A stretch of DNA of 64,000 nt, taken from the IMG/VR virus record IMGVR_UViG_3300022591_000002; one strand, 5' to 3'. Both the position numbers and the translations under genes were made by a program. The stretch comes from a virus. Lineage: Duplodnaviria; Caudoviricetes. Shown here piece after piece: positions 1-64,000 of the stretch (position 1 is the stretch's first letter; every line of letters begins with the position of its first letter). Below the pieces are notes generated by a model. The model was not told where the DNA came from and did no database searches. It saw only the letters and a list, made by a program, of their open reading frames with translations.

Positions 1-67
1 GTCATTCACCCCGCTTTATAAATTCTGCATGTCGTCAAACTTGCTACCTTAATAAAGGAGACTAGAG

Positions 68-598
68 ATGGCAAAATTTTACTCAACAAAAACTTACGGT
101 AACGACCGCGGCTTATCATGCTGTTTTAGACAATGGAGAGCTACACACTCACATTGTTCAACACTACATGGTTACTCAATTGGCATCAAGCTCGTGTTTG
201 AATGCGACACACTAGATGACAAAAACTGGTGTATGGACTTTGGTGGTCTGAAGGAATTCAAAGCGTGGGCAGACTATATGTTTGATCATACTTTGGTAAT
301 TGCCCAAGATGATCCCCATTTGAACTTCTTCCAACAAATGTCCAATATGGGCAATGTTCCTAGTTCAGGAAATGGTGACCAAGGCTTTGATACTTTAGAA
401 CCATACCAGCGAGGTGCAATCTGTGACCTGCGTATTGTTCCCGGTGTAGGCTGTGAAATGTTTGCCAAAATGGCATACGACAAAATGGCTGAACTATTAG
501 CATCGGGCGATATGCGTTACCCAATTAACCCAACTGTGCGTATTAAAACAGTTGAAGTATTCGAACATGGTGCTAATTCTGCTACATACGAAGGATAA
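68..598 (+). CDS. queD: 6-carboxy-5,6,7,8-tetrahydropterin synthase (QueD/PTPS family)
   Basis: CSTLHGY (CxxxHG motif), DFGGLK, DHT, GCE and final VEVFEHGANSA motifs typical of QueD; RBS upstream. Confidence 0.88.
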   Translation: MAKFYSTKTYGNDRGLSCCFRQWRATHSHCSTLHGYSIGIKLVFECDTLDDKNWCMDFGGLKEFKAWADYMFDHTLVIAQDDPHLNFFQQMSNMGNVPSSGNGDQGFDTLEPYQRGAICDLRIVPGVGCEMFAKMAYDKMAELLASGDMRYPINPTVRIKTVEVFEHGANSATYEG

Positions 599-601
599 TT
601 A

Positions 602-736
602 ATGAACGACAAACAATGGCTGGAACGAGTATCACTTGCGTACAAGGCATATCCGTACCCTAACAAAGACATTGAAGCATTTGTAACTTGGATATATAAG
701 CAGTACGGAGTAATACCTCCAAATGATAAGAAGTAA
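602..736 (+). CDS. small hypothetical protein (44 aa, not in ORF track)
   Basis: Manual translation MNDKQWLERVSLAYKAYPYPNKDIEAFVTWIYKQYGVIPPNDKK*; fills the gap after queD. Confidence 0.6.
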   Translation: MNDKQWLERVSLAYKAYPYPNKDIEAFVTWIYKQYGVIPPNDKK

Positions 737-887
737 ATTCTGGCGACTTTGGGCTAAAGCGTTAGGAGAGAAAGCAGGCAAAACGGATGCGGAAGCAGAC
801 CGAATTGCTTGTATTCGTACGTGTATTGTGTTAATATATGTTATAACGAACTTTTTTATAATCGCAGGCGTCATAAGGCATTGGTAA
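723..887 (+). CDS. small membrane protein (54 aa, not in ORF track)
   Basis: MIRSKFWRLWAKALGEKAGKTDAEADRIACIRTCIVLIYVITNFFIIAGVIRHW*; hydrophobic C-terminal helix; its TAA overlaps the next ATG (TAATG). Confidence 0.75.
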   Translation: MIRSKFWRLWAKALGEKAGKTDAEADRIACIRTCIVLIYVITNFFIIAGVIRHW

Positions 888-2573: not shown

Positions 2574-3203
2574 ATGAAAGATTACAGAAAGATATACGAA
2601 AGACATTACCAATGTAGCCTGTTACCAGGAATTGATATTCATCATAAAGATGGTGACCATGATAACAATCTGCCATCTAATCTTCAACCAGTTACATTAG
2701 AAGAACACTATCTTATACATAAATCCCAAAAAGATTATTATGCCGCATATCTTATTGGCCGTAGAATGAAAATTAAACCAGAAGATTGGGAACAAATGGC
2801 TAGAGAGAATGGTAGAAAATCTGCTATTCAAAATAGAGACAACGGTGTGGGATTAACTGCATGGGCTAAAAACAATCCCGAATTAGCACAAAAAATTAGA
2901 TCAGAGAACGGTAAAAAATCTGGTAGAAAATGTGCAGAAGAAAAACTCGGAATACACGGTGCTGATCCTGAACAAAGAAAAGAATGGAGTTCTAAAGCAG
3001 GTAAAGCATCACCCGGATTCAAATTAGGACATGCTTCTACAGCAGGAAAGATTGGTGGAAAAAAGGGAGGTGCCTATGCGAAAGAAAATCGCACAGGCAT
3101 ATTTGCGTTAAATCCTGAGAAGAACAAACAACGACATCTTAACTCTGTAATATCAAAATTGATAAAAAGCGGTAAGATGTGTGCTTGGCCAAGACTTACT
3201 TAG
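2574..3203 (+). CDS. free-standing HNH endonuclease (probable homing endonuclease)
   Basis: DIHHKDGDHDNNLPSNLQPVTLEEH HNH motif at the N-terminus; Gly/Lys-rich repeats in the C-terminus. Confidence 0.8.
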   Translation: MKDYRKIYERHYQCSLLPGIDIHHKDGDHDNNLPSNLQPVTLEEHYLIHKSQKDYYAAYLIGRRMKIKPEDWEQMARENGRKSAIQNRDNGVGLTAWAKNNPELAQKIRSENGKKSGRKCAEEKLGIHGADPEQRKEWSSKAGKASPGFKLGHASTAGKIGGKKGGAYAKENRTGIFALNPEKNKQRHLNSVISKLIKSGKMCAWPRLT

Positions 3204-3831: not shown

Positions 3832-3836
3832 ACAGT

Positions 3837-3900: not shown

Positions 3901-6900
3901 ATGGCAGATATTATCAAAAAGCACATTAACGTAGGTAGCCAATCAAATGACGGCACCGGCGACAGCATCCGCGATGCATTTCAGAAAGTAAACGACAACT
4001 TCGATATATTATACGCGGCTAACGGACTTGGTAACGGATTATTGTTTACCAGCTTGCAAGATGCTCCAACTACGTTAACTTCGCAAAAGATTCTAGTTAG
4101 TGATGCTAGCGGATTAACACTAACACAGATGACTGTAGTAGGTTCTCAAGGTATTCAAATTACTTACGATTATACGCATGGTCAATTAGTAGTTGCTAGT
4201 ACACTTACTTCGTTAGTAAGCGATCCAGCTCCAGTTATCCAAGCAGGTGCAAATCTAGACGGTGGCTTAACTGCTCGAGCAGTACAGTTTGCTGATCCAA
4301 AGCGTGACACAGACCTAGTAACTAAGCAGTGGGTTGAACAGAATTTCCTTAATAGAGATGGTAAATTTGAGTCTGACACAGGTACAGCACCTAGTCAATC
4401 TACTGCTACAATCGTAGAAGGTAGCACTCTAAGACACAATATCGTCCTTGCGCCAAATGCTATTCAAACTAGCACAAACGTTGGCAAAGTTATTAGTACA
4501 ATAAATGCGTCTGGTATCACTGCCACAATTAATCTAGCATACCAAGCATGGAAAAACGAACACGTAACACGTAAAGACTATGTAGACACTAAGATCAGTT
4601 TACAAGGTATTAGCACAATTGATTCACTAACTGGTGAAGTAAATCCAGGGTTTGGTCAAATGACTGGTGCCTTACAGTTGTTCCGTGATCCAATAGAAAC
4701 TGATGATCCATTAACAGCGGCAACAAAGAACTATGTAGACTCAACTGGATTTCCAAGTAAGAGTAACTTCTTCGTTGCACTAAATGGTAACGACAACCGC
4801 ACAGACATTCCTACATTCAAACGTGGTCGTTCTTGGGCATGGGCTTTCCGAACAATTAACAAAGCCGCACAGGCCGCAGAAGCTTATCAAAACAGCAGTC
4901 AAATTGTTCTTGGTCCTTATGTAAAGACTATTACAACAAATAACTTTACTAACCCTGTACAGATTATTCAAATTACAGGAAGTACTATTCCTAAGGCAGT
5001 CAAGCTAGTTGTTAACTATGACGGTACTGGTGGTACAGATCCATTTATTAATTCTAGTATCTATCCAGGTATCTATATCATCGGCGTCGACACAGGTGCA
5101 ACTGCCGAAGTCTTAAACGTAACTAACGGCGGTGTTGGCACAGAGTATTATGAAGTAGTCCCAGTTGACTACTCCAACGGCTTCCCAACTTCCATTGTTG
5201 CTTTGGGAACTACAGGTACTGTAAGAGTTAATTTTACACAACAAAACCTAGTAGGTATTCCAGAATTCTGGACAGACTACACATTTAAACTAGACGATTC
5301 AGTCGGTGGCGGTCAAGGTACAATTATTGGTTCAGATGTTCACTATGATGCAACTGGAAATGTATACGATCAATTGATTGTTCGAGTTACTAAACCATTT
5401 GGACAATCTAATGTATCAATCCCGCAGGCCAACTGGCATGTATTTGCCGGTGATTGGTCTGACACAAGCAACAATACAGGTGGTTTTAGTTTATCCGAAA
5501 CACTAAAATACGGACAAGGTTACAACAGAACTGAAGTTTCTATTAAGATTGAATCAGGCGAGTATGATGAGGACCTACCAATTAGGCTAGCAGATAACGT
5601 ATCTATTGTAGGTGATGAGTTCCGCCGAAGCATGGTACGTCCTGGCAAATGGCCCAATACTCAGCGTCCATTGCGCACTACTAGCCCCTATGCTAACTTG
5701 TATTTTAGACGCGATACACAAGTTGATGGTTTAATTATTACAGAAATAGATACATCAACTAACTTTGCGTCAGCAGTAGCTATTACTCCGGACGGCATTA
5801 CTAACAGCGGACTGACTGGTGTTATTAACTTTACACTGAATCAAAGTACTGCTAACCCATCATGGGTCAGCAAAGTCTTTGTCGGTGCTAACGGCATTGG
5901 TACTGTTACTGCGGTTAACGGTAGTGTATTCTCTGTGGATATTGCAGAAAACGCACAGGGCATTAGAACTATTAACTCAAGCACAACTATTTCAACAGGT
6001 AGTTGGGCAATTTATGCACCTATCAACTTTGGTTACCATTATCTAAAAGATCCTACAAAGCCAATGAACTTGCTTGGTTGGGAACCAGGTGGTAGCTTAT
6101 CTAATCCAGGTGGATATAATGTTGCTACGCAAACACTTTTAGCCAACAAGGAGTTTATTCAAGAGGAAGTTATTAGATATATAGATGCTACAACTTCTGG
6201 AACCTTTGTTTATAATAAACCAAAATACAAACGTGATGTTGCTTACTTTGTTGAGGGCCTAGCTTATGACCTACAGGTAGGCGGTGTAAGCAGAACTATT
6301 AACATACCCGAATTATATTTTAATTCTTCTGAATCAATTGTTTATCAACAACAATTACCACAACTAACATCTGCAATAAGCTATGTAGGTGCCTTAGCCG
6401 CACAGGTTATGAGTAACTCTACTGTTACTGCTTATCAATCAACAGTAACACAGGTATTTGCTAATGTAAGTTTAGAACCAGATGCTCCTACAAAAGTTGT
6501 AGAAATGGTAGGCACTATCAATACTATTTTAAACAATAGTAATCCAGCTTACAACCCAGGTAAATTCAATAATGAACTAGACATCTTCTTGATGAATGAT
6601 GCTACTATGATTCGTTATCTAGCTGGCCAAGGTCACGGCGGTTTTATGAAAGTTCTTGACCCATATGGTCAGGTTAAGGCCAAATCACCTTACACACAAA
6701 CTGCAAGTTCATTTAGTGAAAGCACAGGACGTCACCGCTTTGCAGGTGGATTCTTTGTTGACGGTTACACAGGTAACATGTTGTTAACTCCGACTGCGGC
6801 AAATGCAACTCAAAACACAGCAGGCGACTATGTTGCTATCCCTGTTCAAGGCTATGCACTAACATTACGCACACCGTTAACACCTAGCTTCTTTGTTTAT

Positions 6901-9900: not shown

Positions 9901-11760
9901 GATCCTATATATCAGGCCGCAACTAAACAGTATGTTGATTCAAGTGCGCAAATCAGTAAACTACGTGATGTAACACTAACAAGTCCAACTAACCAAGACC
10001 TGTTGATGTTTACAACACAGGCAGTACCACAAGTTAACCAACCTGTATCATTCTACAATACTGCTACTACTGTAGTCAACGTTTCAAACAACGGTGCTAC
10101 AATTACTAATACATCATCAGCAAATGGCGGTGGTAGTGATGTGTACTTGACAAGAACAGGCAATTCATTAACTATCAAACTACAAGGTGGTACTCTTGGT
10201 GGCGCTAATAACCCAATCACAGATTATCATGTAAACTCTGCGGCACAGATTCAGCAGAGCAAATTGTTAATGACTGTTGCTTCTGCTAGTGCAAGTAGCC
10301 CTACAGGAACACAACAACAGATACAGGCCAACTTAGGTTTGTCGCAATACAACAACAAGATATTCTCACTAACTAACGGTTGGGTAGATTTATTAACTGC
10401 ATCAAGTACAACTACTGGTGTTCCGGCAACAGCATTACGTTGGATCCCTGGATCAAGTACAGGTGGATTGTTAGGTAGTGTTGCTACAGGTAACGCAGAC
10501 GCGGCAGTGACAGCACTAAGTAGCTCAACTGTTCGTTCATGGTTAAACGTTGGTAGTTTGTCAGCAGGTGGTAACTTTACTGGTGCTGTAACATTTTCAG
10601 GTGGTGTAACTGTAAACACAGCTAGTATGGACGTACAGTCTACACTATACACACATAGCATTTTACCAGACGCAAACAACTCATACACTATAGGTGCAAA
10701 TGGCAACGTTTACTCTGCAATGTACGCAAGTACATTCTATGGAGCATTAAACGGTTCTGGTGCAAGCATTAGTGCTACTACTATTCCAAATAGCGCATTG
10801 GTTAATAATGCTATAACAATTTCAGCTGGCACTGGTATGACTGGTGGTGGTACACCGGCATTAGGTGGAAGTGTAACATTAACTAACAACGGTGTCGTTG
10901 GGCTAGCAAATGGCGGACATATTACTGCAACAGGAACAGCAGGCGGAACATTCACTTTAGGTTCAGATGCTACAAGTGCTAATACCGCTGGTGCGATTGT
11001 TGCTCGAGATGGTAGTAACAATTTTAGTGCTGGTACAATTACTGCTACACTTGCAGGAACTGCTAACAACATAAGAGATTATACAATTAATCAAAGTGTA
11101 GGTACTGGTGATGCTCCTACATTTGCAGGTATTACTAGTTCTGGTAACATCGAACTTACTAATACTACTGCAAACTATCTACGCATGAAAAATGGTAGTG
11201 GTGGTTATGTACAGTTCTTTGATAGCAAGGATCCGGATGGCGGCATTTACAACTATACCCTATCAATGGATGCTGGTTACTTTGGCTTCAACTTTGGAAC
11301 AAATAATAGTGCATACGAGGTTGGCGCCCTAGCTTCGTATATTTCATCAGACGGTGTATACCACGGAACTGCTACTGCGGCACGTTACGCTGACTTGGCA
11401 GAACGTTATACAAGCGATGAGCAGTACGAGCCTGGTACAGTACTAGTTTTTGGTGGTACTAAAGAAGTTACTGAAAGCACAACTGCTAACGATCGTAGAG
11501 TGGCAGGTGTTGTATCTACACAGCCTGCGCATATCATGAACGACGAGTTAGAAGGCGGTATTGCTCTAGCGTTAACTGGTCGTGTTCCATGTAAAGTTAT
11601 TGGCACAATCAAGAAAGGTGACTTAATGGTAACCAGCCATATACCAGGAGTAGCAATGGCAAACGATGATCCTAAGATGGGAACTGTTATAGGTAAAGCG
11701 TTAGAAGATTACGATAGTCCGGAAGTAGGAGTTATCGAAGTTGTTGTAGGACGTCTATAA
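3901..11760 (+). CDS. giant baseplate/tail-fibre protein (2619 aa) with gp9/10-like N-terminus and C-terminal intramolecular-chaperone (peptidase G2-like) domain
   Basis: INVGSQSNDGTGDSIRDAFQKVNDNF N-terminal motif; repeated TKxYVD and QMTG fibre motifs; G/T/S/N-rich beta-strand regions; C-terminal ARYADLAERY...GRVPCKV...KKGDL...IGKALE. Confidence 0.8.
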   Translation: MADIIKKHINVGSQSNDGTGDSIRDAFQKVNDNFDILYAANGLGNGLLFTSLQDAPTTLTSQKILVSDASGLTLTQMTVVGSQGIQITYDYTHGQLVVASTLTSLVSDPAPVIQAGANLDGGLTARAVQFADPKRDTDLVTKQWVEQNFLNRDGKFESDTGTAPSQSTATIVEGSTLRHNIVLAPNAIQTSTNVGKVISTINASGITATINLAYQAWKNEHVTRKDYVDTKISLQGISTIDSLTGEVNPGFGQMTGALQLFRDPIETDDPLTAATKNYVDSTGFPSKSNFFVALNGNDNRTDIPTFKRGRSWAWAFRTINKAAQAAEAYQNSSQIVLGPYVKTITTNNFTNPVQIIQITGSTIPKAVKLVVNYDGTGGTDPFINSSIYPGIYIIGVDTGATAEVLNVTNGGVGTEYYEVVPVDYSNGFPTSIVALGTTGTVRVNFTQQNLVGIPEFWTDYTFKLDDSVGGGQGTIIGSDVHYDATGNVYDQLIVRVTKPFGQSNVSIPQANWHVFAGDWSDTSNNTGGFSLSETLKYGQGYNRTEVSIKIESGEYDEDLPIRLADNVSIVGDEFRRSMVRPGKWPNTQRPLRTTSPYANLYFRRDTQVDGLIITEIDTSTNFASAVAITPDGITNSGLTGVINFTLNQSTANPSWVSKVFVGANGIGTVTAVNGSVFSVDIAENAQGIRTINSSTTISTGSWAIYAPINFGYHYLKDPTKPMNLLGWEPGGSLSNPGGYNVATQTLLANKEFIQEEVIRYIDATTSGTFVYNKPKYKRDVAYFVEGLAYDLQVGGVSRTINIPELYFNSSESIVYQQQLPQLTSAISYVGALAAQVMSNSTVTAYQSTVTQVFANVSLEPDAPTKVVEMVGTINTILNNSNPAYNPGKFNNELDIFLMNDATMIRYLAGQGHGGFMKVLDPYGQVKAKSPYTQTASSFSESTGRHRFAGGFFVDGYTGNMLLTPTAANATQNTAGDYVAIPVQGYALTLRTPLTPSFFVYNGIQYQVDYISDWNQTANANYGTATLNLDPNKPGGIQGVTLSGTLNNFKPNQAQIPVTISSPGTAGGLTARAYVTTDGSGTIQAMTITYPGIGYVRSTDPGYDPVANAITFVLGGATFNMTIVGGVIKTMTVANPGAGYTTNTSINIASPGSGTRATASITAVDSNGGIVSVNLSNGGTGYTSTPKVTFGNSNITYATVIKKGFIGTLPSSIEVVTAGNRSMLANDFTQINDYAYGIFATNGGFIENVSMFSYYCWTSYYALNGAQLRTITGSSAYGTYGLIAEGSDPTEIPIAISVPDELQQVITIYNQAPYSNLAGGTAIYAIVGGAISYVPRDESDLEINHGGARKTYRIKTATFVTTASGNYVYSLALDSSISSSGLYAAVPDGTTGIIRSKAQFRLSGVNAATLTRPSTVLSLNEDPVNVYRILSYTDQGNDVALAEADQSYDYMTIQPYQVNNQYRQGVTRPLISSAGSNYTGAISTLTFATPSPFTITAAVNGNQGTASAPVSTFLITGAGSTIHPGMTVSGTGVLPATYVTWCSSDLGTIAVNQLQYLTGGTTLTFTAVTATGYATIASGAVNGVVITDPGVGYNTAPAITAITPAGGTSATITVSLAGVAGSNYIKVIDVGAQSLARFQKSATAGTYSYRFGYDGKIYNINSYTPPSATVPWGELTVSTYSTGTGLASEITADPLYAGVSANTTGSITVRISTLRATSHDMVDVGTGGYATTKIPNDLYGPPLIAPNQAHEVIEKSKGRVYYVTTDQDGNFRVGKYFHVDQGRGTVTINAPISLSGVESLGFKKGVTVNEFSIDGNMAAESTSKVPTEQALVNYINSRLGISKTGAIWPTLIGAGFLPLSGSSSGGGLPQMTGAINMNGNFLYNLPAPTQPSYAANKAFADTKISLAGMNEVQNNGGQLAGQMTGPLELVGNPGTTTGVTTQLANSSNTILYVNTSTLYLGMQVNNSAASTGTYISSIGNGYITLSAGLIGSIPNGTTVTFDPIYQAATKQYVDSSAQISKLRDVTLTSPTNQDLLMFTTQAVPQVNQPVSFYNTATTVVNVSNNGATITNTSSANGGGSDVYLTRTGNSLTIKLQGGTLGGANNPITDYHVNSAAQIQQSKLLMTVASASASSPTGTQQQIQANLGLSQYNNKIFSLTNGWVDLLTASSTTTGVPATALRWIPGSSTGGLLGSVATGNADAAVTALSSSTVRSWLNVGSLSAGGNFTGAVTFSGGVTVNTASMDVQSTLYTHSILPDANNSYTIGANGNVYSAMYASTFYGALNGSGASISATTIPNSALVNNAITISAGTGMTGGGTPALGGSVTLTNNGVVGLANGGHITATGTAGGTFTLGSDATSANTAGAIVARDGSNNFSAGTITATLAGTANNIRDYTINQSVGTGDAPTFAGITSSGNIELTNTTANYLRMKNGSGGYVQFFDSKDPDGGIYNYTLSMDAGYFGFNFGTNNSAYEVGALASYISSDGVYHGTATAARYADLAERYTSDEQYEPGTVLVFGGTKEVTESTTANDRRVAGVVSTQPAHIMNDELEGGIALALTGRVPCKVIGTIKKGDLMVTSHIPGVAMANDDPKMGTVIGKALEDYDSPEVGVIEVVVGRL

Positions 11761-44520: not shown

Positions 44521-44531
44521 TATTGTAAAAT
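44503..44531 (+). promoter_or_regulatory. sigma70-type promoter for folE
   Basis: TTGACA-17nt-TAAAAT. Confidence 0.65.
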
Positions 44532-44571
44532 AACATATAAGTCATCCACGACTTAAACTCGGAGAAATTAA

Positions 44572-45566: not shown

Positions 45567-45567
45567 C

Positions 45568-46473
45568 ATGGCAACGCTTGAAGAAAAAGAAAAGTTAATG
45601 GAAGTACTTAAATTTACTCCACGTACCTACAAAATTTCAATGTGGGGATATGGTGGTGAAAAAGTTATGGGTACTGTAGATCGTAAGATTTACGATTACT
45701 TTAAATATCGCAGACTTGATCTTAGCGACTACGCATGGGACAGCGACTATGCCGACGAGCATAACATTCCCGAAGATATGCAACCGTTCCCATCGGGTAG
45801 TTGGTACGAGTGCGATGGTATGGGACATGCAGGCGGTGTTAGCCGTAACGCAGGCACACTTCAAATTGAAGATGAAAATGGCGAAGTTATATACGAACGT
45901 AGTCTAGAAGATTTAGACGGCGGTGATGATAGTCCAGAGTTGACATGCTATGACGAAGTTTGGATTGATTCACAACCTGCAGGTACTGTAGTCTTTATTG
46001 GTAACAGTAACGAAAAAGGTACATTCTTTGAATCAGAATTAGAGCTTACTGCTCCGTTTGATATTACTAAACTAACTCTACAATACGATGAAATCGACGG
46101 TGAAGAGATTGTTAATACTGTAATGTACAACAGTGAAGACATTGATAACTGGGGTGGTAGCACAGATGGCAAGAGTTCAGACTTTGGCTTTTACATCGCT
46201 CACTCACAAAGCCAAACAGGCAAGTGGGAAAAGTATACCAATATGGATGACATTGAGTATGCTATGACTGACTGGTTTCCTAAAAAGATTAAACCTGTAC
46301 GCAACGGCATCTACATGGTTAAGACTGCTGGCAAGAACAGTTACACGTATCAGTGCAAGTGGACTGGAGAACGTTGGATCAGTGCGTGGCAAGAAGATAC
46401 TCCAGAAACTGACGAAGTTAAAATTAAAGAATGGCAGGGTCTTGCCAATAACCCAGATGAGGTAACACAATGA
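45568..46473 (+). CDS. acidic hypothetical protein
   Basis: Long ORF; ATG 45568 with AAGGA RBS. Confidence 0.7.
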   Translation: MATLEEKEKLMEVLKFTPRTYKISMWGYGGEKVMGTVDRKIYDYFKYRRLDLSDYAWDSDYADEHNIPEDMQPFPSGSWYECDGMGHAGGVSRNAGTLQIEDENGEVIYERSLEDLDGGDDSPELTCYDEVWIDSQPAGTVVFIGNSNEKGTFFESELELTAPFDITKLTLQYDEIDGEEIVNTVMYNSEDIDNWGGSTDGKSSDFGFYIAHSQSQTGKWEKYTNMDDIEYAMTDWFPKKIKPVRNGIYMVKTAGKNSYTYQCKWTGERWISAWQEDTPETDEVKIKEWQGLANNPDEVTQ

Positions 46474-46781
46474 ATTTCCTAAGCAAGTGGCTTTTTAAAA
46501 AGCTCAAAGAAGGTGCGGAGCAAGAACGCGAAGAAAATATGTATAGTAACTCTATCCCTAAAACAATGGCCATTAGCGGCCGCGATATTGAGAATAGACT
46601 CGATAGCGATCGCGGTATTCGTTTTAATGTATATAAAGCCACAGGCGGTACAATCATCGAAACTCAGTTTTACGATCGTCAAAGAGATCGCCATCATAAT
46701 GCGCTACATGTTATTACCGAAGATAAAGATATTGGTAAAGAACTTGGCAAGATCATTACAATGGAGTCATTAAAGACGTGA
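46470..46781 (+). CDS. hypothetical protein
   Basis: FNVYKATGGTIIE..YD motif; coupled ORF. Confidence 0.65.
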   Translation: MNFLSKWLFKKLKEGAEQEREENMYSNSIPKTMAISGRDIENRLDSDRGIRFNVYKATGGTIIETQFYDRQRDRHHNALHVITEDKDIGKELGKIITMESLKT

Positions 46782-46975
46782 GTTATACCGGACCCGTATT
46801 TGATGGCCCTAGTTTAGACAAACAGACAAAATGGATTAAGAAGTATCAAGTTGATCCGTTAAAATTAGGACGTATGTGTGAACAGTTTCCGGGGTTGCAA
46901 AAATCCTGGAATGAGTTTAAACTAGTGTATGAACTTTGTAGGAGTGCAGATGAAACTAACCGAACGATTCCTTAA
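46778..46975 (+). CDS. small hypothetical protein
   Basis: GTG start with GGAG RBS; coupled ORF. Confidence 0.5.
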   Translation: MSYTGPVFDGPSLDKQTKWIKKYQVDPLKLGRMCEQFPGLQKSWNEFKLVYELCRSADETNRTIP

Positions 46976-47438
46976 CTGGTTAGATCGACACGGCCGTAAA
47001 CGTGTCATTATGGATCGCGAATGTAACGAACCTTATTTGGAACGTTACTATGTCTTTTTGAAAGATCGTAAATGGTTTCCATTTAACGTATTCATTCATA
47101 AATTTTTAAAATCAGACCCAGATGAGGTACATGATCATCCATGGCCTTACGCTACCTTAATTCTTAAAGGTGGTTACTACGAATGGATTCCAATGTTTGC
47201 ACCAGATGGAATTAAAGTTGGCGAAACACGCTACTGGCGTGGTCCCGGACATTTCCGTATTTGTAGTCCTAAGAGTTTTCACCGTATTGAATTGCACCCA
47301 GAGGTAACTGCTTGGACTATGTTCATGCCAGGCCCACAAGTGCGTGAATGGGGATTCTTAGTAGGCAAATTTGAGAATCAAAAGTGGGTACACAACGAAC
47401 AATATTTGGAGGCAAGACGTGAACAAGCTGGTAATTGA
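46950..47438 (+). CDS. cupin-fold protein
   Basis: HDHPW...ILKGGYYE...FHRIEL cupin metal motifs; AGGAG RBS. Confidence 0.7.
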   Translation: MKLTERFLNWLDRHGRKRVIMDRECNEPYLERYYVFLKDRKWFPFNVFIHKFLKSDPDEVHDHPWPYATLILKGGYYEWIPMFAPDGIKVGETRYWRGPGHFRICSPKSFHRIELHPEVTAWTMFMPGPQVREWGFLVGKFENQKWVHNEQYLEARREQAGN

Positions 47439-47955
47439 TGATGCAAAATTTAAAGGCCTAGTTGCCAAAATCTGTAGAGATATTTTACTCAGCGATTGGC
47501 GTCCTGATTATATTGTAGGTATTACTAGAGGCGGACTATTGCCAGCTGTAATGATTAGCCAATACTTAGATATACCTATGCATACACTCAACGTAAGCCT
47601 GCGTGATAATCAAACAGATTTAGGTCCGGAGAGTAATTTATGGATGGCTGAAGATGCCTACGGATATAATGCAGAAAACGTAGGCGAGGCGTTGTGCAAA
47701 AACATTTTAGTAGTTGATGACATCAACGATCAAGGCTCAACTATAAACTGGATCATGGAAGATTGGCGTAGTGGTTGCTTACCTAATGATGCACGTTGGG
47801 AACAAGTATGGAATTACAATGTTCGATTTGCAGTAATTATAGATAATTTATCTAGCAAGTGCAATGTAAAAATGGACTACGTTGGTATGGAAGTTAACAA
47901 AGCTGAAAAAGACGTATGGATCGAATTTCCTTATGAGGAATGGTGGGCTAAATGA
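47419..47955 (+). CDS. type I phosphoribosyltransferase (Gpt/Hpt-like)
   Basis: VGITRGGL and ILVVDDINDQGST PRPP-binding loop, W.EFPYE; GTG start with GGAGG RBS. Confidence 0.85.
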   Translation: MNKLVIDDAKFKGLVAKICRDILLSDWRPDYIVGITRGGLLPAVMISQYLDIPMHTLNVSLRDNQTDLGPESNLWMAEDAYGYNAENVGEALCKNILVVDDINDQGSTINWIMEDWRSGCLPNDARWEQVWNYNVRFAVIIDNLSSKCNVKMDYVGMEVNKAEKDVWIEFPYEEWWAK

Positions 47956-48236
47956 ATTCGCAAGAAAAAGAAGTAATGGATATTCTGCAAGAAGAATGTG
48001 CAGAAGTTATTCAAGCAGTTAGTAAAATTAGTCGCTTTGGTTTAGACAATTACAAACCAGGCAAACCTAAAACTAACCGCGAACATCTAGAAGAAGAACT
48101 AGGTGATATGTTGGCTATGATTGATATTTTGCAAAGTATGGATATTGTTAGCTATGCTAATATCGAACGTGCCCAAGAAGCAAAAATTGAAAAACTTAAG
48201 AAATGGTCTAACATTTATGAAAACAATATTACCTAA
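47952..48236 (+). CDS. MazG-like NTP pyrophosphohydrolase
   Basis: LQEECAEVIQAVSK...LEEELGDMLA. Confidence 0.85.
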   Translation: MNSQEKEVMDILQEECAEVIQAVSKISRFGLDNYKPGKPKTNREHLEEELGDMLAMIDILQSMDIVSYANIERAQEAKIEKLKKWSNIYENNIT

Positions 48237-48402
48237 AGAAGGCAGTAGATGGTCCGGCACTGAGAGGGAAGTTTTTATTGTCCTGCATACCGTTGAAGTA
48301 GACGGTCACACTTGGGTCCATTACAGAAAAAATTCTACTGATACAGAATATAGCTGTTACGTGGAAAGTTTTTTACAAAGATTTAATCCTATATTAGAAT
48401 GA
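48217..48402 (+). CDS. small hypothetical protein
   Basis: MKTILPKEGSRW...CYVESFLQRF; coupled ORF. Confidence 0.55.
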   Translation: MKTILPKEGSRWSGTEREVFIVLHTVEVDGHTWVHYRKNSTDTEYSCYVESFLQRFNPILE

Positions 48403-48758
48403 CACAATTAAAAGGCTTAGTTCCAAAAGGCTGGGGTTCAGAATTTATCTGGGCCACTAATGACAAGTACTGCGGCAAGTTTATGAACTTCAACGCAGGT
48501 GCAAAATTTAGTATGCACTTCCATAAAGATAAAGAAGAAACTTGGTATATACAATCAGGTAAATTTATTATCCGCTGGATTGATACTAACAACGCAGAGG
48601 TTTACGAGAAAGAAGTTAGTGATGGTACCGTATGGCATAACCCCCCGTGCATGCCACATCAAATCGAATGTATCGAAGCAGGTACTGTTATTGAAGTTTC
48701 TACTCCAGATTCAGTAGAAGACAATTATCGTGTAGGCAAGGGCGATAGTCAAAAATGA
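48399..48758 (+). CDS. cupin (mannose-6-phosphate-isomerase-like)
   Basis: KGWGSE, SMHFH..KEETW, PHQIE, EVST.DS.ED.YR. Confidence 0.75.
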   Translation: MTQLKGLVPKGWGSEFIWATNDKYCGKFMNFNAGAKFSMHFHKDKEETWYIQSGKFIIRWIDTNNAEVYEKEVSDGTVWHNPPCMPHQIECIEAGTVIEVSTPDSVEDNYRVGKGDSQK

Positions 48759-49156
48759 CAAAGGTAATTGTTAATGGAACTTTTGATATACTACATCGCG
48801 GCCATTTGGAACTACTTGACTACGCTAAAAGTTGTGGCGGGTATTTGCTTGTGGCTATTGACACAGATCGCCGTGTAAAAGAATTAAAAGGCGACAGTCG
48901 TCCTATTATTAGTCAGTATGATCGTAAGTATCATTTAGAAATGCTTAAACCAGTCGATGAAGTTAGACTGTTTGATAGCAAAGAAGAACTTGTAGAAATT
49001 ATTAAGAATTATAATCCAGACATTATGGTCAAGGGCAGTGATTACAAAGGCCGTAGTGTAGTTGGAGCAACATACGTACCAGAGGTAATTTATTTTGAAC
49101 GACTCGGCGAATACTCAACAACCAAAACAATTGAACATATTACTGCTAGGGGATGA
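48755..49156 (+). CDS. HldE C-terminal (RfaE-II)/TagD-like nucleotidyltransferase
   Basis: VNGTFDILHRGH, ELKG..RPI, VKGSDY, YSTT. Confidence 0.82.
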   Translation: MTKVIVNGTFDILHRGHLELLDYAKSCGGYLLVAIDTDRRVKELKGDSRPIISQYDRKYHLEMLKPVDEVRLFDSKEELVEIIKNYNPDIMVKGSDYKGRSVVGATYVPEVIYFERLGEYSTTKTIEHITARG

Positions 49157-49859
49157 CGGTTTAGACGTCTATCAGTTTGGTAGCGTAGATCGTATTAGCC
49201 CAGAAGCACCTGTTCCCGTCTTTAAACATTCTTATGATATTCATCGGGCTGGCATGGCTCGTAACGTTTGCGAAAACTTAGAAGCATTGGGTTGTAAAGT
49301 AAGTTTCCTACGAGGCCAAACTAGCATCAAGACTAGACTAATTGATATTCGCAGTAAGCAACAAATTGTTAGGATTGACAACGATGTTGAATCAGATCCT
49401 ATTGTGTTTGAAACTAATATTCCCCCAGTGTATGATGCCATTGTTATTAGCGATTATAACAAAGGCACAATTACTTACGAACTAATTGAAGATCTAGTAA
49501 AAACTGTTAAATGCCCTATCTTTGTTGATACAAAGAAAACTGACCTAGCACGATTGGAAGGCTGTATTATTAAAATTAATAAACACGAATACAGTTTGTT
49601 AACTAGCAAGCCAAAAACAGGATTAGTTATTACACAGGGAGAAAATGGTGTTGTATGGGACGGTTGGGCATTTGGCGCAAAGACTGTAGAAGTAGCCGAT
49701 GTGTGTGGAGCAGGGGATACGTTTCTATCTGCACTTACATACCAATACCTAAATACAAACGACATGCACATGGCAATTAACTTTGCAATAGATGCAAGTG
49801 CAGTTACAGTACAACATTTAGGTTGTTACGCACCCAAACTGGAAGAGATAAATGGATAA
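49095..49859 (+). CDS. HldE N-terminal (RfaE-I)-like PfkB sugar kinase
   Basis: RISPEAPVPV, DYNKG, VDTK, DVCGAGDTF. Confidence 0.85.
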   Translation: MNDSANTQQPKQLNILLLGDDGLDVYQFGSVDRISPEAPVPVFKHSYDIHRAGMARNVCENLEALGCKVSFLRGQTSIKTRLIDIRSKQQIVRIDNDVESDPIVFETNIPPVYDAIVISDYNKGTITYELIEDLVKTVKCPIFVDTKKTDLARLEGCIIKINKHEYSLLTSKPKTGLVITQGENGVVWDGWAFGAKTVEVADVCGAGDTFLSALTYQYLNTNDMHMAINFAIDASAVTVQHLGCYAPKLEEING

Positions 49860-50253
49860 TCATATTTTTAAAGGTATCCCAGATGATATCGAAGATAGTG
49901 AAGCACCGTGGACTGAACTAGTCAACGAAGATTATCATGTAAAAGTTTTCAAGGACAAGTATCCTTGTACCCCCGGGCACCTATTGTACGTGCCTAAATA
50001 TAATACGTTAGGAGTATTAAGTGATGCGTTTGAAGATGCTGTTAGATACGGTAAAGGAATGGTGGAAGCCGGAGAATGGGACGGTTTCAATGTTGGCCTT
50101 AACTATGGCCCATGTGCGGGTCAAACTGTTAACTGGCCCCATATCCATCTTATACCGCGCAGAACAGGCGATGTCGAAGATCCGATTGGGGGCGTCCGAA
50201 ACACAATCCCAGGCAAAGGCAATTATCACTCGCCGGACTATAGAGCAGATTAA
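49852..50253 (+). CDS. HIT-family hydrolase
   Basis: DKYPCTPGHLLYVP, N.G..AGQTV..PHIHLIPRR.GD. Confidence 0.82.
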   Translation: MDNHIFKGIPDDIEDSEAPWTELVNEDYHVKVFKDKYPCTPGHLLYVPKYNTLGVLSDAFEDAVRYGKGMVEAGEWDGFNVGLNYGPCAGQTVNWPHIHLIPRRTGDVEDPIGGVRNTIPGKGNYHSPDYRAD

Positions 50254-50746
50254 ACCTATACACTTTCCGTGGCAATCTGATCCCCGTAGCATGTACGCCG
50301 GTAGTGCAGGACAAGTACTGCAATACACTGGTGCCGGTGCTGGATATACTTGGGCATCTACTGGCATGCATAATACTGCAATAGGTTATCAAGCAGGTTA
50401 TCAAATAGGTACAGGAATTACTGCATCGAAGATTATTCCAAACAACAATATTGTATTCAATAGCCCTACCAAGCCCGTATTAACAATTACAGGTGACGGT
50501 GATGTTATCTGGGGTGGTAAGCCTAGCGAGGCCGCAGATGTTTTAGTACAGAGTTTCCAATTTGCTGTAGAAGATAAAAAAGGAATTACCAAAGCGGCCA
50601 GACGCAGATATTATTTGAAGGCCTGCCAAAATATTCTAAATAAAGCAGAAGCAATGGAACACGAAGAATTTCTTGACTTCCTTAAGAAACACGTGTATAA
50701 TAAGGAAAGACGTGTAATTGTCGATGCATTGCAAGGACGAACATGA
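50171..50746 (+). CDS. hypothetical protein (start uncertain)
   Basis: ORF overlapping the HIT end; NTAIGYQAG-like short repeats. Confidence 0.5.
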   Translation: MSKIRLGASETQSQAKAIITRRTIEQIKPIHFPWQSDPRSMYAGSAGQVLQYTGAGAGYTWASTGMHNTAIGYQAGYQIGTGITASKIIPNNNIVFNSPTKPVLTITGDGDVIWGGKPSEAADVLVQSFQFAVEDKKGITKAARRRYYLKACQNILNKAEAMEHEEFLDFLKKHVYNKERRVIVDALQGRT

Positions 50747-50967
50747 AGACAGCTAAAGAAATATTTGACGAAACAATGGGGCGTGTTAAACGCCTACAAG
50801 TGTTTGAAATTAAACGTGAAGTAGGATCTAACTGGATTCCGCAAGGTACAATTCCTTTTGACATTAGTGCCAGGAATGGTATTGCTACATTCAAAGTGTA
50901 TGCTGAATTCTTGCAAGATGCAGAGGATCAAGTAACGCAATTTTTAGAGAAAGATGAAGATGAGTAA
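50743..50967 (+). CDS. hypothetical protein
   Basis: 74-aa coupled ORF with AGGA RBS. Confidence 0.6.
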   Translation: MKTAKEIFDETMGRVKRLQVFEIKREVGSNWIPQGTIPFDISARNGIATFKVYAEFLQDAEDQVTQFLEKDEDE

Positions 50968-51811
50968 GATTAAAGTCGCAGAATTATTTTACAGTATACA
51001 AGGTGAAGGACGGTACATGGGTGTTCCGTCTGTTTTCTTACGTACATTTGGCTGTAATTTTAAATGCCAAGGATTTGGCATGCCTAAAGGAGAACTAAGC
51101 AATGAAGCTGAAAATGTTAACCCAGAAAATTATAAGCAATATAGAGACTTACCATTGGTCAGTACAGGGTGTGATTCATATGCTAGTTGGGATCCTAGGT
51201 TTAAGCATCTTAGCCCTTTGCTGGATAGTTCTGCGATTGCCGATGCTATTGTGGATACGTTACCGTACAAAGAATGGCTCGACGAACATCTCGTAATTAC
51301 CGGCGGTGAGCCATTGCTAGGTTGGCAGAAGGCTTACCCAGATCTGTTAGAACATCCTAAGATGGATAAACTTAAAGAAATTACTTTTGAAACAAACGGT
51401 ACAATGCGTTTGACAAAAGACTTTAAAGAATATCTTAAAGCATGGAAATGGAAACACGAAGGATTTATTGATCGCGAGATTACCTTTAGTGTAAGTGCCA
51501 AACTTCCATGTAGTGGTGAGCCCTGGGAGGATGCCATTAAACCCGAAGTAGTCTGCGACTATGAAAATTATGGTACTACCTATTTAAAATTTGTAATTGC
51601 TACAGAAGAAGACCGCGATTATGCTCTTAAAGCCGCAAGTGAATACCGTGCCGCAGGATTTAAAGGACATGTTTATCTAATGCCAGTTGGCGGTGTTGAA
51701 AGTGTATATGCGTTGAATAACAAGGCAGTAGCCCTAATGGCAATGAAACATGGACTCCGTTATAGTGATCGATTACAAGTCCCATTGTTTAAAAATGAGT
51801 GGGGAACCTAA
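50960..51811 (+). CDS. queE: 7-carboxy-7-deazaguanine synthase (radical SAM)
   Basis: ELFYSIQGEG, FLRTFGCNFKC...GCDS, VITGGEP, ETNGT, SVSAK, SDRLQ. Confidence 0.9.
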   Translation: MSKIKVAELFYSIQGEGRYMGVPSVFLRTFGCNFKCQGFGMPKGELSNEAENVNPENYKQYRDLPLVSTGCDSYASWDPRFKHLSPLLDSSAIADAIVDTLPYKEWLDEHLVITGGEPLLGWQKAYPDLLEHPKMDKLKEITFETNGTMRLTKDFKEYLKAWKWKHEGFIDREITFSVSAKLPCSGEPWEDAIKPEVVCDYENYGTTYLKFVIATEEDRDYALKAASEYRAAGFKGHVYLMPVGGVESVYALNNKAVALMAMKHGLRYSDRLQVPLFKNEWGT

Positions 51812-52104
51812 TGGCTGGGTTCCAGTCAAAAAGATTAATGAGCCTAAGCAGAATGAGTGACGAAGTACAATGTTCACCTCCGTCGGAAGATTGGGGATTG
51901 AACAGAGCAAGATTTTGGGAACTGAAATTATGCTGGCTTCCTAAAAAATGTTTTCTTACTCAAAAATCTCTTTGGGGCAAACGTGCGTATCACGGTGAGA
52001 ACTGGATCACCGGTCCTGGCGACCCTGTTGTTAATCATTACTGGATCGACAAACATGAATTTCTTATTTGGTCACTAAAAGGTAGAAATGTTCGAAACTA
52101 TTAA
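51811..52104 (+). CDS. hypothetical protein
   Basis: TAATG-coupled to queE; Trp-rich. Confidence 0.55.
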   Translation: MAGFQSKRLMSLSRMSDEVQCSPPSEDWGLNRARFWELKLCWLPKKCFLTQKSLWGKRAYHGENWITGPGDPVVNHYWIDKHEFLIWSLKGRNVRNY

Positions 52105-52699
52105 TCCGTGGACTCCTGTAATTTTTAAAGAGCACTACGACGGATTTGGTCCGGAACAACTTGCGGCCGCAAAAGAATCACTTGCTGGAGCAAAAGACAA
52201 CGGTGTTATTTGGTTAGAAGAAGGCGATGCTCGCAGTTCTGTTTCTAATCAAACTACTCCTCCGTTAGCACACCCTGCACTTAGAGACTTTTTTGATTGG
52301 CAACACAAAAAGGCAGGAGAACTGCTTTTAGACAAGATGCACATGTTGGAAACTATTCCCTATTGGATTTCTAACACATGGGTTAATGTACACGGCAAAG
52401 GTGGATTAACTAAAACGCACACGCACGGTATGACTGTATTAAGCATTGCGGCATACTTACAGATGCCAGAAAATGGTGGCTACATTGAATTTAGAGATCC
52501 TTTATATGAGATGCACAGTATTCATAAAAAGTCAAAGCAGTATGACCCGCAAGAATATCATGCAATACCAGCAGTAACAGGAGATGTATTGTTCTTTTTT
52601 GGTTGGTTACATCATAGAACACAGCCAAACCAAAGCGATACAGAGCGTTGGGTCATAACCACTAATTATACATGTGTACAACATAAGGAAATGAAATGA
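52088..52699 (+). CDS. 2OG-Fe(II) oxygenase-like protein
   Basis: W.NV...HTH, AYLQ.P..GG.IEF.DP, GDVLFF..WL.H, R.VI..N double-stranded beta-helix motifs. Confidence 0.72.
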   Translation: MFETINPWTPVIFKEHYDGFGPEQLAAAKESLAGAKDNGVIWLEEGDARSSVSNQTTPPLAHPALRDFFDWQHKKAGELLLDKMHMLETIPYWISNTWVNVHGKGGLTKTHTHGMTVLSIAAYLQMPENGGYIEFRDPLYEMHSIHKKSKQYDPQEYHAIPAVTGDVLFFFGWLHHRTQPNQSDTERWVITTNYTCVQHKEMK

Positions 52700-61572: not shown

Positions 61573-61575
61573 GGG

Positions 61576-63759
61576 TTAACTTCCGTTTCTAAATTTAATA
61601 ATTGGTAGTAGAGCAACGTTACGTGGTCTAACTTCATTTGCTGTACCTGCTGACTCTGTTCTGTTTTTAATTGTCCAAATAGTGTTGTCATTTGTACCAC
61701 CATCATTATAACTGGTGTCATTAATAGGTTGTACATAAGCACCATAACCTGCTTCTGGTTCTGCTTGCCCTAAGGCGTTACGTGCTGGGTAACCATAACT
61801 GCCATCTAAGTTTCTGCTTCCAGTAATTGGGTTAGATGCATCAGATTGTATTAACCATACGTCATCAATCAAGTGAGTATGGTTGCCGATATCACCAGTT
61901 TGGAATGATCCTAGGTTACGTCCGATATCAACTCCTCGACCTAAGTCAACACCTCTAATAAATTCACCCAACAAGTTAGGAATTTTAAATGTATTGCCTG
62001 CGCCGCCGTATGTATAACCAACAGCCGCAAATAATTCTGGGTATGAAGTGGTTACTAGTGAACTTCCATCGCACACTAAGTATCCGCCAGGTGCAGTAGA
62101 ACCGGCATGGTGCATAATTGTACCTGCAGGAACTGCTGTAAAGCCACTAAGTGCTGTGTTTAATGCTCTAGTCAATGCATCTATTTGATTTTGTAAATCG
62201 CTATATCTGTTGTCAACGTAGGTTTTAACGGCATGTTGAGTCGGCAATCTTGATGCTAGATTACCTGTTAATGCAACATCATCGTCAAACTGTGTCACTA
62301 TGTTGTTAACGCTGTCAGTAATAGAAACTAAATTTGCAGTTAAGGCGTTAGTTTGGACTGTTCTACTGATCACATCTCCAGCATTAAGAGATCTCCATGT
62401 ATTACCAGGGGCACCTAAGTTGTAACTTAGGTCATCGCTTGGAAGCATGTCTCCTTTAACTGACCAAGAACCAATTAGGTTACCTGGATTATTAAGACCT
62501 GCACTAAATGTTCTAGCATTAACTGTGTCAAAACGTTGAGTTGAATTACCTAAGTTATTTGAATAGTCTGCATTAGGAACGATTGTTGCATTTGTATCTA
62601 ATTTCCAGTTACCTGCAATATCACCAATTTGTGATCCTGAATCAATAGCACCAGTATAAACTTTATTAAAACGTAGTACACTAGTTCCTAAGGTGTTACC
62701 TAAGTCAGCAAAAGGTGCAATTAAACTGTTATTAGTTAATTGCCAGTTACCTTCAATGGTGCCGTTGGCAATTGCCGATCCTGCACTTAGTTCTAGACTG
62801 TAAACATTTTTCCATACGTTATTTGAATTACCTAATTGTTGACGATTATAGTTTGCAGGAATAATACCTTCTTGCAATACTTGAGCTACTTTATTTGCAC
62901 CATCGTTAACAAACAAACTCATGCCCGGACCATATGCATTAACAATTAGATTGTCATTAATGTCATTGTTAAGTGTGGATGCATTTCTACCTATTGTTAC
63001 GCCCGATTGGAATGACCATAGGCTAGCAATAGTTTCAGTTTGATCACGCTGTGGGTATGTTGTATCTAATAAATTTGGAATACCGTATAGTGCAACATCA
63101 GTACTTGTAGTAACATGACGGTTAGCAATATTGTAATTTTTAAATGTAATACCTCTGTAGACATTTGGAAAACCGCTAGCAACTAGTGTAGCAGTTGACG
63201 CAAATGTTCTTTGAGAGAATATTGCCATTGCTTCGCCGTTGATAATCAATTCAACGACTGGGTGATTTGTACCTGTGCTGTCAGCTACCGCAGTAGAACG
63301 CATCTTAGTTTCTAAGAAACCTGGAACACGCTCTGGACCAATTAATTGATATCCTGTGCTTGTAGTAGCGATATATAGTTGACGGTCGTCACTCTTATAC
63401 CAGAAGTCTCCTGGCTGACTAGCGGCTACAGGAGCACCGCCTGCTCTTTGATTAATAGTTGTATCGGTAGAAGTTGTACTGTACAACATTGTACCAAGCG
63501 GGCGCCAATTAGTATTATCGTATACCATTGGACGTAACACGCTAGCAGAATTGTCAAACCAAATTTGTCCCTGTATTGGATTCAAAGGACTTTGTACATC
63601 AGAAAAATGTTCTAGCATCCATACAAAGTTATCGTTTTGATATTGTCCAAATCCGGAAACATTCTTTCCAATAAGATTTAAGGTAGTAGTGTTATCTATT
63701 TGCCCATCAGGAATAGATGTTAGTAGTGTGTTATTTGTTAATCTTATTAGATATGACAT
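61576..63759 (-). CDS. short-tail-fibre-like protein with tail-collar domain
   Basis: Same N-terminal module as the 59470 gene; internal LG....RF..V repeats; VPAGTI...PGGYLVCDGS...YPELFAAVG...F.IPNL.GEFIRG collar. Confidence 0.82.
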   Translation of the reverse strand: MSYLIRLTNNTLLTSIPDGQIDNTTTLNLIGKNVSGFGQYQNDNFVWMLEHFSDVQSPLNPIQGQIWFDNSASVLRPMVYDNTNWRPLGTMLYSTTSTDTTINQRAGGAPVAASQPGDFWYKSDDRQLYIATTSTGYQLIGPERVPGFLETKMRSTAVADSTGTNHPVVELIINGEAMAIFSQRTFASTATLVASGFPNVYRGITFKNYNIANRHVTTSTDVALYGIPNLLDTTYPQRDQTETIASLWSFQSGVTIGRNASTLNNDINDNLIVNAYGPGMSLFVNDGANKVAQVLQEGIIPANYNRQQLGNSNNVWKNVYSLELSAGSAIANGTIEGNWQLTNNSLIAPFADLGNTLGTSVLRFNKVYTGAIDSGSQIGDIAGNWKLDTNATIVPNADYSNNLGNSTQRFDTVNARTFSAGLNNPGNLIGSWSVKGDMLPSDDLSYNLGAPGNTWRSLNAGDVISRTVQTNALTANLVSITDSVNNIVTQFDDDVALTGNLASRLPTQHAVKTYVDNRYSDLQNQIDALTRALNTALSGFTAVPAGTIMHHAGSTAPGGYLVCDGSSLVTTSYPELFAAVGYTYGGAGNTFKIPNLLGEFIRGVDLGRGVDIGRNLGSFQTGDIGNHTHLIDDVWLIQSDASNPITGSRNLDGSYGYPARNALGQAEPEAGYGAYVQPINDTSYNDGGTNDNTIWTIKNRTESAGTANEVRPRNVALLPIIKFRNGS

Positions 63760-63769
63760 TTAGTGTTCC

Positions 63770-64000
63770 TTAAGCGATTGGGTTAGCTGGATCTGCTACC
63801 CAAGTTGAACCCGATACATAGTATCTGTAGATGTGTTGTACGCAAACTGGTTGTTGATTTGGCTGTGTAGCAACTGTAATACCTGGAGTTCCGTACAATA
63901 CTGATTGACTGTTTTGTACACCGCCCTTGTCAACGCTTACATACTGACCAGAGAATGTAACGTTAGTCAATAGTGACGGTATGATATAGTTTAGTGTGTT
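63770..64000 (-). CDS. 3' end of a structural gene continuing beyond the window
   Basis: Frame stays open from 63970 to the window edge; ends ...YYVSGSTWVADPANPIA*. Confidence 0.6.
   Translation of the reverse strand, partial: NTLNYIIPSLLTNVTFSGQYVSVDKGGVQNSQSVLYGTPGITVATQPNQQPVCVQHIYRYYVSGSTWVADPANPIA

Follow-up and report, generated by a model that had tools for sequence, protein, structure and literature searches.

The window analysed here is a stretch of 64,000 bp, the whole of the DNA presented from the virus record IMGVR_UViG_3300022591_000002 (Duplodnaviria; Caudoviricetes), and it is part of an uncultured jumbo phage from a pond. This report deals with the absence of the short palindrome GCWGC (GCAGC or GCTGC) from the window and with its relation to the open reading frame (ORF) at 20199-20870, which encodes a protein resembling type II restriction endonucleases (REases). 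The family B DNA polymerase (PolB) of the window shares 45-50% identity with the polymerases of Sinorhizobium phage Phosso and Agrobacterium phage Atu_ph07, other products of the window include a clamp loader, PhoH, DnaJ, a peptide deformylase and a ClpB-like ATPase, and a megablast search of 20 kb of the window against cultured phages returned no match. In IMG/VR, hundreds of relatives have PolB proteins that are 80-92% identical. The features central to the argument are:

1-64000, no strand: stretch without GCWGC (GCAGC/GCTGC) on either strand, 0 sites against 48-94 expected, with synonymous choice in all three frames
4861-4881, plus strand: example of recoded Ala-Ala pairs (AAAGCCGCACAGGCCGCAGAA), exact match at 4861
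19279-20202, plus strand: clamp-loader AAA+ ATPase (Pfam AAA, DNA_pol3_delta2, Gp44_lid)
20199-20870, plus strand: apparently orphan type II REase-like gene, candidate GCWGC cutter, 223 aa, PD-(D/E)XK
20939-21682, minus strand: PhoH-like ATPase flanking the nuclease insertion (Pfam PhoH, E = 4.6e-73)
36015-38687, plus strand: family B DNA polymerase, marker gene (Pfam DNA_pol_B), recoded at orthologous positions

An earlier note on this DNA had noticed that GCWGC appears absent throughout the 64 kb, at a GC content of roughly 40% and where chance would give several tens of sites, and exact searching bore this out: GCAGC and GCTGC both have a count of 0 over both strands of the whole 64,000-bp window, the computed GC content is 40.0% and three null models predict between 48 and 94 sites. 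Dinucleotide-preserving shuffles (n = 100) gave 99.9 ± 8.9 GCWGC counted over both strands, which corresponds to about 50 sites expected. The comparison with Markov and codon-shuffled expectations and the ranking of palindromes by depletion, both proposed in the same note, pointed the same way. The maximum-order Markov model predicted 48 sites, and the resulting z of -12.75 was the lowest among all 4-, 5- and 6-mers. For 75 crude gene calls (95% coding), a shuffle of synonymous codons that held proteins and per-gene codon usage constant predicted 94.5 ± 5.8 GCWGC with a minimum of 79 over 300 trials, against an observed count of 0. Among short palindromes, GCWGC alone combines zero window sites with a high expectation, and the comparison sites that had been said to occur freely were all counted: GCSGC 122, GATC 260, GAATTC 19, GGATCC 9, CCWGG 81, GANTC 127, CTGCAG 8 and CAGCAG 26. 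Several other words are scarce in the window, namely AAGCTT (2 against 28 expected), GTGCAC (1 against 16.5), AGCGCT (0 against 11), ACGCGT (0 against 9), CASTG (51 against 129) and CTSAG (27 against 88). The same DNA was found at a word share of 0.96-0.99 in pond and viral metagenome runs from 2019, 2020 and 2023, the only kinds of run that contained it, so the absence of GCWGC is not an artefact of one assembly. GCWGC is thus significantly under-represented by composition-aware and codon-aware nulls alike, and it is the recognition word of known restriction enzymes, TseI and ApeKI, as stated in two papers (PMC3643589, PMC8557920).

The coding sequences record how the sites were lost. Although GCA and GCT together make up 77% of the Ala codons in the window, all 97 Ala-Ala pairs start with GCC (56/97) or GCG (41/97), as the earlier note had seen in a few examples, and its example strings were located at 4861, 31788, 57679 and 42002. 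In addition, codons that end in GC are never followed by AGC or TGC, and the frames G-CAG-C and G-CTG-C have zero occurrences. Every GCWGC site has therefore been removed by synonymous recoding, in all three reading-frame classes.

We compared several hundred related IMG/VR loci with the window, counting GCWGC in the relatives from the fetched records. When 80 PolB-centred loci were scored, GCWGC stood at 0 to 1.08 times its Markov expectation, and relatives at 80-92% PolB identity spanned the whole range from zero to full expectation. On the PolB tree the purged lineages form three or more clades, set apart from one another by non-purged ones, and the clamp-loader tree agrees with this; GCWGC avoidance therefore switches on and off among close relatives. 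Three states can be told apart: no avoidance (state A); avoidance of HGCWGCD with tolerance of GGCWGC (state B); and avoidance of all GCWGC, which is the state of the window (state C). The large record G009 (364 kb, 100% complete) has 823 GCWGC sites, and G003 and G005 are close to expectation. At the other end stand G002 with 21 sites in 200 kb, G006 with 100 and G007 with 125, nearly all of these surviving sites being preceded by G on one strand (21/21, 99/100 and 122/125, respectively). GGCWGC makes up 159 of the 166 surviving sites in the pooled intermediate loci, against 54% in non-avoiding loci, and HGCWGCD is avoided about 50-fold in the partly purged relatives (G002, L098-L108; G006, L258-L268; G007, L269-L281; G001; G004). 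The tolerance of G-preceded sites could reflect flank sensitivity of a nuclease or a DNA modification in GGC context. As a separate observation, GGCWGCC is nearly absent from all large records, including the non-avoiding G009 (L282-L300), in which the count is 0 and 285 singly flanked sites predict about 25, and this scarcity is a distinct avoidance of a 7-bp palindrome.

At the orthologous level, the conserved Ala-Ala positions of PolB start mostly with GCA or GCT in state A relatives and exclusively with GCC or GCG in state C, the window included, and the mean number of GCWGC per polB gene falls from 3.5 in state A to 0.73 in state B and 0.07 in state C. The strong and specific selection that the earlier note had inferred is upheld by this recoding of orthologous pairs with respect to non-avoiding relatives, together with the codon-aware expectation of 94.5 against 0. 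Close relatives share the codon usage of the window and yet retain GCWGC, which excludes general codon-pair bias, named by that note as a possible refutation.

Other words are avoided in other relatives. TGCA is depleted 7- to 12-fold across G001 (L081-L097; 198 against 1,450 expected, z = -66) and G009 (133 against 1,545, z = -72), AGCT, CGCG and GGCC are depleted in some of the relatives' records, and ACWGT (ACAGT/ACTGT) is missing from G004 (L116-L122, 128 kb; 0 against about 199 expected over both strands, z = -19). We know of no enzyme with an ACWGT site. In G001 and G004, the avoidance of TGCA, AGCT and CGCG gave no sign of a flank-specific exemption, and the TGCA sites remaining in G009 likewise follow no flank rule. 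AGCT, CGCG and TGCGCA are also low in G001 and G009. Since the avoided words vary in this way among relatives, the clade carries varied restriction fingerprints.

The ORF at 20199-20870 has the PD-(D/E)XK REase fold with a conserved catalytic motif, as judged from its predicted structure and from an alignment in which E47, E50, D71, D80-V-K82 and E95 are invariant in 13 homologues down to 34% identity. Its AlphaFold (AF2) model has a predicted local distance difference test score (pLDDT) of 90.8, and its top fold matches in the PDB are almost all type II REases: ThaI (Z 6.8) and NhoI (Z 6.6), followed at lower rank by HinP1I (Z 5.8), NaeI, EcoRV, MspI, MutH, SfiI and SwaI. The best of these matches is modest (Z 6.8, root-mean-square deviation 4.5 Å, 157 residues aligned). 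One structure match in AFDB is named as an NgoFVII-type REase. The protein is also predicted to form a homodimer: the homodimer model scored 0.62 against 0.00 for the best control, with a partner pLDDT of 89 and at least 95% of contacts shared between runs, a score mark that is met by 20 of 30 proteins solved as one-chain pairs and by 1 of 23 solved as single chains. The ORF had no match in Pfam, PHROG or NCBIfam, the family profile matched no PDB sequence, a scan of GTDB species genomes gave no confirmed relative, and no match was found when three family members were compared by tblastn with 50,697 phage records. A full HMMER scan of 1.84 billion representatives recovered 159 relatives.

The genomic context of the distant members of this family (E = 1e-15 to 1e-16) is informative. 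P0145 is fused to a C5 methylase of the PF00145 family, and P0146, P0143 and P0148 adjoin one, so that the methylase was fused or adjacent in 4/4 contexts examined, which is the signature of a genuine restriction-modification (R-M) endonuclease family. Distant relatives of the nuclease lie beside an intein-containing C5 methylase on the giant-virus-like contig L253 (JGI, 156 kb), and some distant relatives, among P0139, P0149 and P0161, carry N-terminal SAP, Rho_N, HeH or IQ modules. L250/L251 is a cellular locus resembling a defence island, in which a C5 methylase is fused to a domain of the nuclease family and the neighbours are a gene for RE_Bsp6I (GCNGC-type), an EVE-domain gene, a second C5 methylase, an integrase and an Mrr-type gene. 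In contrast with the distant relatives, the window, 86 carrier loci and nine large records, the 93%-complete G001 among them, yielded no C5 methylase in a search whose positive control gave E = 9e-122, and the search for N6/N4 methylases gave only a sub-threshold match and nothing solid. The phage copies of the gene thus appear to lack a cognate methylase and to be orphans. Solitary REases are rare in sequenced phages, with 12 counted in 831 (PMC4176335).

The start of the nuclease gene overlaps the stop of the clamp-loader gene through the ATGA at 20199-20202 (the junction reads gcaATGAtt), and in most relatives PhoH directly follows the clamp loader after a gap of 57-90 bp with no nuclease between them. 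When window positions 20200-21650 were compared with L166 positions 10000-11500, the tract from the nuclease to PhoH had 90-95% DNA identity and the flanking genes 74-83%, a difference that indicates a recent recombination tract spanning the nuclease.

A profile scan of IMG/VR identified 80 loci with a homologue of ORF 20199-20870, at 29-75% identity, in at least five insertion sites and with GC contents of 0.35-0.44; some divergent homologues were left unscored because their contigs were too short or lacked DNA. All 80 carrier loci are purged: HGCWGCD has zero sites in 78 of them and 1 and 2 sites in the other two, over about 1.2 Mb in total, and six extra carrier loci (L166, L168, L169, L301-L303) are purged as well. 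Among nuclease-free loci, fetched with unrelated genes, 62 of 153 (41%) are purged, and the share of purged loci is 54%, 64% and 65% for those carrying three other sporadic accessory genes of the window, so the perfect association is not general to the gene pool. Homologues of the ORF are thus confined to phage DNA from which GCWGC is absent, either altogether or except where a G precedes the site. The converse does not hold, since the gene is present in 1 of 154 loci fetched with other genes and about 40% of such loci are purged. The co-variation suggested by the earlier note therefore stood in one direction, as every carrier is purged (80/80 and the six additional ones), and failed in the other, as the purge is also common in loci where no copy was found. 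On the clamp-loader tree the carriers form two clades, each nested among non-avoiders. On the nuclease tree, 4 changes account for the tolerance of GGCWGC, compared with an average of 14.9 in shuffles, none of 500 of which gave so low a number; related rows share labels, and the test therefore demonstrates clustering and not its cause. Two candidate relations were tried and rejected. One was that the nuclease is required for avoidance, as no copy was detected in G002, G004, G006 or G007, all of which avoid the site. The other was ORF 45547-46473 as a correlate, chosen as common only to the window and the strongly purged G002, and its 20 carrier loci include non-avoiders.

We propose, at a probability of roughly 0.6, that GCWGC is missing through selection against cleavage by a GCWGC-specific type II REase and that the phage has its own gene for an enzyme of this kind, unaccompanied by a methylase. 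That the cause is selection against a GCWGC-specific endonuclease is very likely; that ORF 20199-20870 has this specificity, and that the absence of sites is the immunity of its carrier, has in our estimate somewhat the better of the odds. The enzyme would cut GCWGC, would be made together with the replication genes and would attack the unmethylated DNA of the host or that of rival phages in the same cell, and a genome could hold the gene only once it is site-free, so that the absence of sites would act as self-immunity. That carriers are a subset of avoiders is what is expected if an active methylase-less nuclease can establish only in site-free genomes. The purge is several times commoner than the gene, which argues that a GCWGC nuclease from outside probably started it, either a host R-M system of GCWGC specificity or nuclease-carrying rival phages; the resident orphan enzyme would now probably maintain it. 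The earlier note had offered a host nuclease or a phage nuclease as the cause. A nuclease is supported, and both alternatives probably contribute. The ORF belongs to an REase family whose members elsewhere are tied to C5 methylases, and it appears orphan here.

Several observations weigh against this proposal. The fold Z-scores are modest, at 5-7, and the family of the ORF matches no curated REase family; its GCWGC specificity is one that we infer, and REase specificity is not readable from fold or sequence. G002, G004, G006 and G007 avoid HGCWGCD and have no nuclease copy in the assembled 31-70% of their genomes, a search repeated with a 59-sequence family hidden Markov model (HMM), and G002 has the empty form of one nuclease insertion site. 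Many carriers tolerate GGCWGC, so that the enzyme either spares that context or something protects it. Being related phages, the carriers may have hosts and a gene pool in common, a confound that the three control genes lessen and do not remove. Lastly, the portion of the phage genome examined is 64 kb.

The strongest alternative, although we consider it rather unlikely, is that avoidance was driven by the host only: a TseI/ApeKI-like or BbvI-like GCWGC R-M system of the host would have purged the phages, and ORF 20199-20870 would have another role or specificity and would circulate among the phages of that host. Restriction-site avoidance of this kind is the established explanation of missing palindromes in lytic phages, and it accommodates the excess of the purge over the gene, with 41% of gene-free loci and four large gene-free records purged, as well as the varied fingerprints of the relatives, which are typical of host R-M systems (TGCA in G001 and G009, ACWGT in G004, and AGCT, CGCG and GGCC). 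It also fits a window that is without or nearly without AAGCTT, GTGCAC, AGCGCT and ACGCGT, and methylation of GCWGC is on record for freshwater bacteria, namely lake Chloroflexi (M.AbaBS3I) and Microcystis. An incidental link between gene and purge should, however, hold for other accessory genes too, and the three controls reached 54-65% against 100%. Furthermore, homologues diverged down to 29% identity and placed in at least five insertion sites are all in purged DNA; an active REase without a methylase, whatever its short recognition word, can have no sites of its own in the carrier, and among the short palindromes of the window only GCWGC is wholly absent in spite of a high expectation. 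The host GCWGC R-M system itself is a postulate.

An improbable alternative is that the phage nuclease is modification-dependent, of the BisI/NhoI kind, and cuts GCWGC only where its cytosines are methylated; the host would methylate GCWGC both in its own DNA, which the phage enzyme would then degrade, and at any site in phage DNA, so that the phage would have to be free of sites. NhoI ranks second among the fold matches (Z 6.6) and belongs to the BisI family, cleaving GCNGC when it is methylated; GCNGC/GCWGC-type specificities have been described for enzymes of this family, and freshwater bacteria that methylate GCWGC exist. Such an enzyme would also explain how a phage nuclease can attack a host that owns a GCWGC methylase. 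The NhoI match is nevertheless tied with ordinary REases (ThaI 6.8, HinP1I 5.8) and covers 122 residues at 10% identity, the fusion or adjacency to C5 methylases in 4/4 distant relatives is the classical R-M layout, and methylation of GCWGC by the host is assumed. Finally, it is most improbable that no nuclease is involved and that mutational or codon-pair bias, or a role of GCWGC as a rare functional signal barred elsewhere, emptied the window, since relatives with the same GC, codon usage and proteins are at expectation (G003, G005, and G009 with 823 sites), the codon-aware null expects 94.5 sites, a signal should occur at least once and the window has 0, and the flank-dependent avoided set of the relatives points to recognition of DNA by a protein.

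The tolerance of GGCWGC in state B brings in DNA modification. The earlier note had taken for granted that the phage carries a 7-deazaguanine modification, and three genes of the window bear on this:

39874-41394, plus strand: divergent protein with the tRNA-guanine transglycosylase (TGT) fold, DpdA-like candidate (Foldseek)
44572-45342, plus strand: GTP cyclohydrolase I, FolE (Pfam GTP_cyclohydroI, E = 2.2e-39)
50954-51811, plus strand: QueE-like radical SAM protein (PHROG 2076 'QueE-like radical SAM domain', E = 1.9e-53; weak Pfam Radical_SAM)

The first of these aligned in Foldseek with the Z. mobilis tRNA-guanine transglycosylase over about 400 columns (E = 5e-7, probability 1.00; mean pLDDT of the model 65), and a protein atlas gave TGT and DpdA clusters as its lead. 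It had no Pfam, PHROG or NCBIfam match, Pfam TGT was also not matched in the genomes of the relatives, and QueC was not found in the records of five relatives, which gave sub-threshold matches only. The premise thus kept its TGT-fold protein, FolE and QueE-like protein and found no support in Pfam TGT or, among the five relatives, in QueC. In phage CAjan, DpdA puts preQ0 at G in GA and GGC contexts and blocks enzymes with such sites (PMC7544227). The window resembles that system in its TGT-fold, FolE and QueE-like proteins, and its relatives tolerate precisely the G-preceded (GGC) GCWGC sites; it differs in the lack of a Pfam TGT/DpdA match and, in relatives, of QueC, and the modification is here a prediction from genes. 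A GGC-specific modification would explain the state B tolerance of GGCWGC, and clade-specific flank sensitivity of the nuclease would do so equally well. The window has purged GGC-context sites too, and homologues of the TGT-fold gene, which is conserved across relatives, are found in state A, B and C loci alike, hence also in non-avoiders.

Two further features were noted in the window, and no tRNA gene was found in its 64 kb:

2574-3203, plus strand: HNH or intron-like homing-endonuclease ORF (PHROG 12324, E = 3e-12)
43723-52699, no strand: run of sugar/nucleotide-metabolism genes beside FolE

The homing-endonuclease-like ORF has no counterpart in the five large relatives compared. The run at 43723-52699 encodes a UDP-glucose dehydrogenase-like protein, a phosphoribosyltransferase, a cupin, a cytidylyltransferase, a PfkB-like kinase, a cysteine-dioxygenase-like protein and a 2OG-Fe(II) oxygenase; G001 and G002 have this run and G003 and G005 lack it, and it may be a nucleotide or DNA hypermodification module.

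The avoidance of palindromes is well known in lytic dsDNA phages, Staphylococcus phage K, which is GATC-free, being an example. As in those cases, a short palindrome has been removed synonymously and the avoided word differs between related phages. Unlike in the usual cases, the purged genome carries a gene of an REase family without a methylase, the distribution of this gene is nested wholly within purged genomes, and relatives avoid the site in the flank-dependent form HGCWGCD. Virus nucleases that degrade host DNA include those of the chlorovirus R-M systems and endonucleases II and IV of T4, and the phage, on the proposal made here, would likewise encode a site- or base-specific nuclease that spares the viral genome; those viruses are protected by methylation or by hydroxymethylcytosine, and here protection would lie in the absence of sites. 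The TseI and ApeKI (G^CWGC) and BbvI (GCAGC) systems, together with the methylases M.ApeKI and M.AbaBS3I, have the word avoided by the phage as their recognition word, and freshwater bacteria carry systems of this kind; the phage protein, which found no match among curated REase families, is likened to them through its proposed recognition word. The closest parallel is PacI, a solitary REase of Pseudomonas alcaligenes, whose genome has no PacI sites (PMC3488263). The phage enzyme, if its specificity is as proposed, would be like PacI an REase without a methylase whose carrier is protected by the missing site. The PacI site, however, has 8 bp, consists of A and T only and is lacking almost for free in a GC-rich genome, whereas the phage site has 5 bp, about 500-800 would be expected per genome of about 330 kb, and it has been actively purged, in a virus, in a purge that recurs in a gene family moving between insertion sites.

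Restriction-site avoidance as such is textbook knowledge, and the window taken alone would be an ordinary though very clean case of it. The new element is the link to a phage-borne REase gene, without a methylase, that in over 80 independent loci from metagenomes is found only in purged genomes. From this link follows a prediction of specificity for an uncharacterised REase family, namely GCWGC with clade-specific sensitivity to a 5' G, and a probable case of a virus that has a frequent-cutting nuclease and is immune to it by recoding its own genome and not by modifying its DNA. To our knowledge, such immunity through the absence of sites is known only for the rare cutter PacI in a bacterium. 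Taken further, the data suggest, at what we judge to be even odds, a mobile family of methylase-less GCWGC-specific type II REases in freshwater jumbo phages, which could be held only after a genome of about 330 kb has been purged, which would spread the purge through the phage community and whose flank rule would evolve with the nuclease lineage. In addition, these phages offer a natural system for following the gain and loss of the avoidance of a 5-bp word across hundreds of related uncultured phages, and they indicate that fingerprints of motif avoidance can assign specificities to orphan nucleases in metagenomes.

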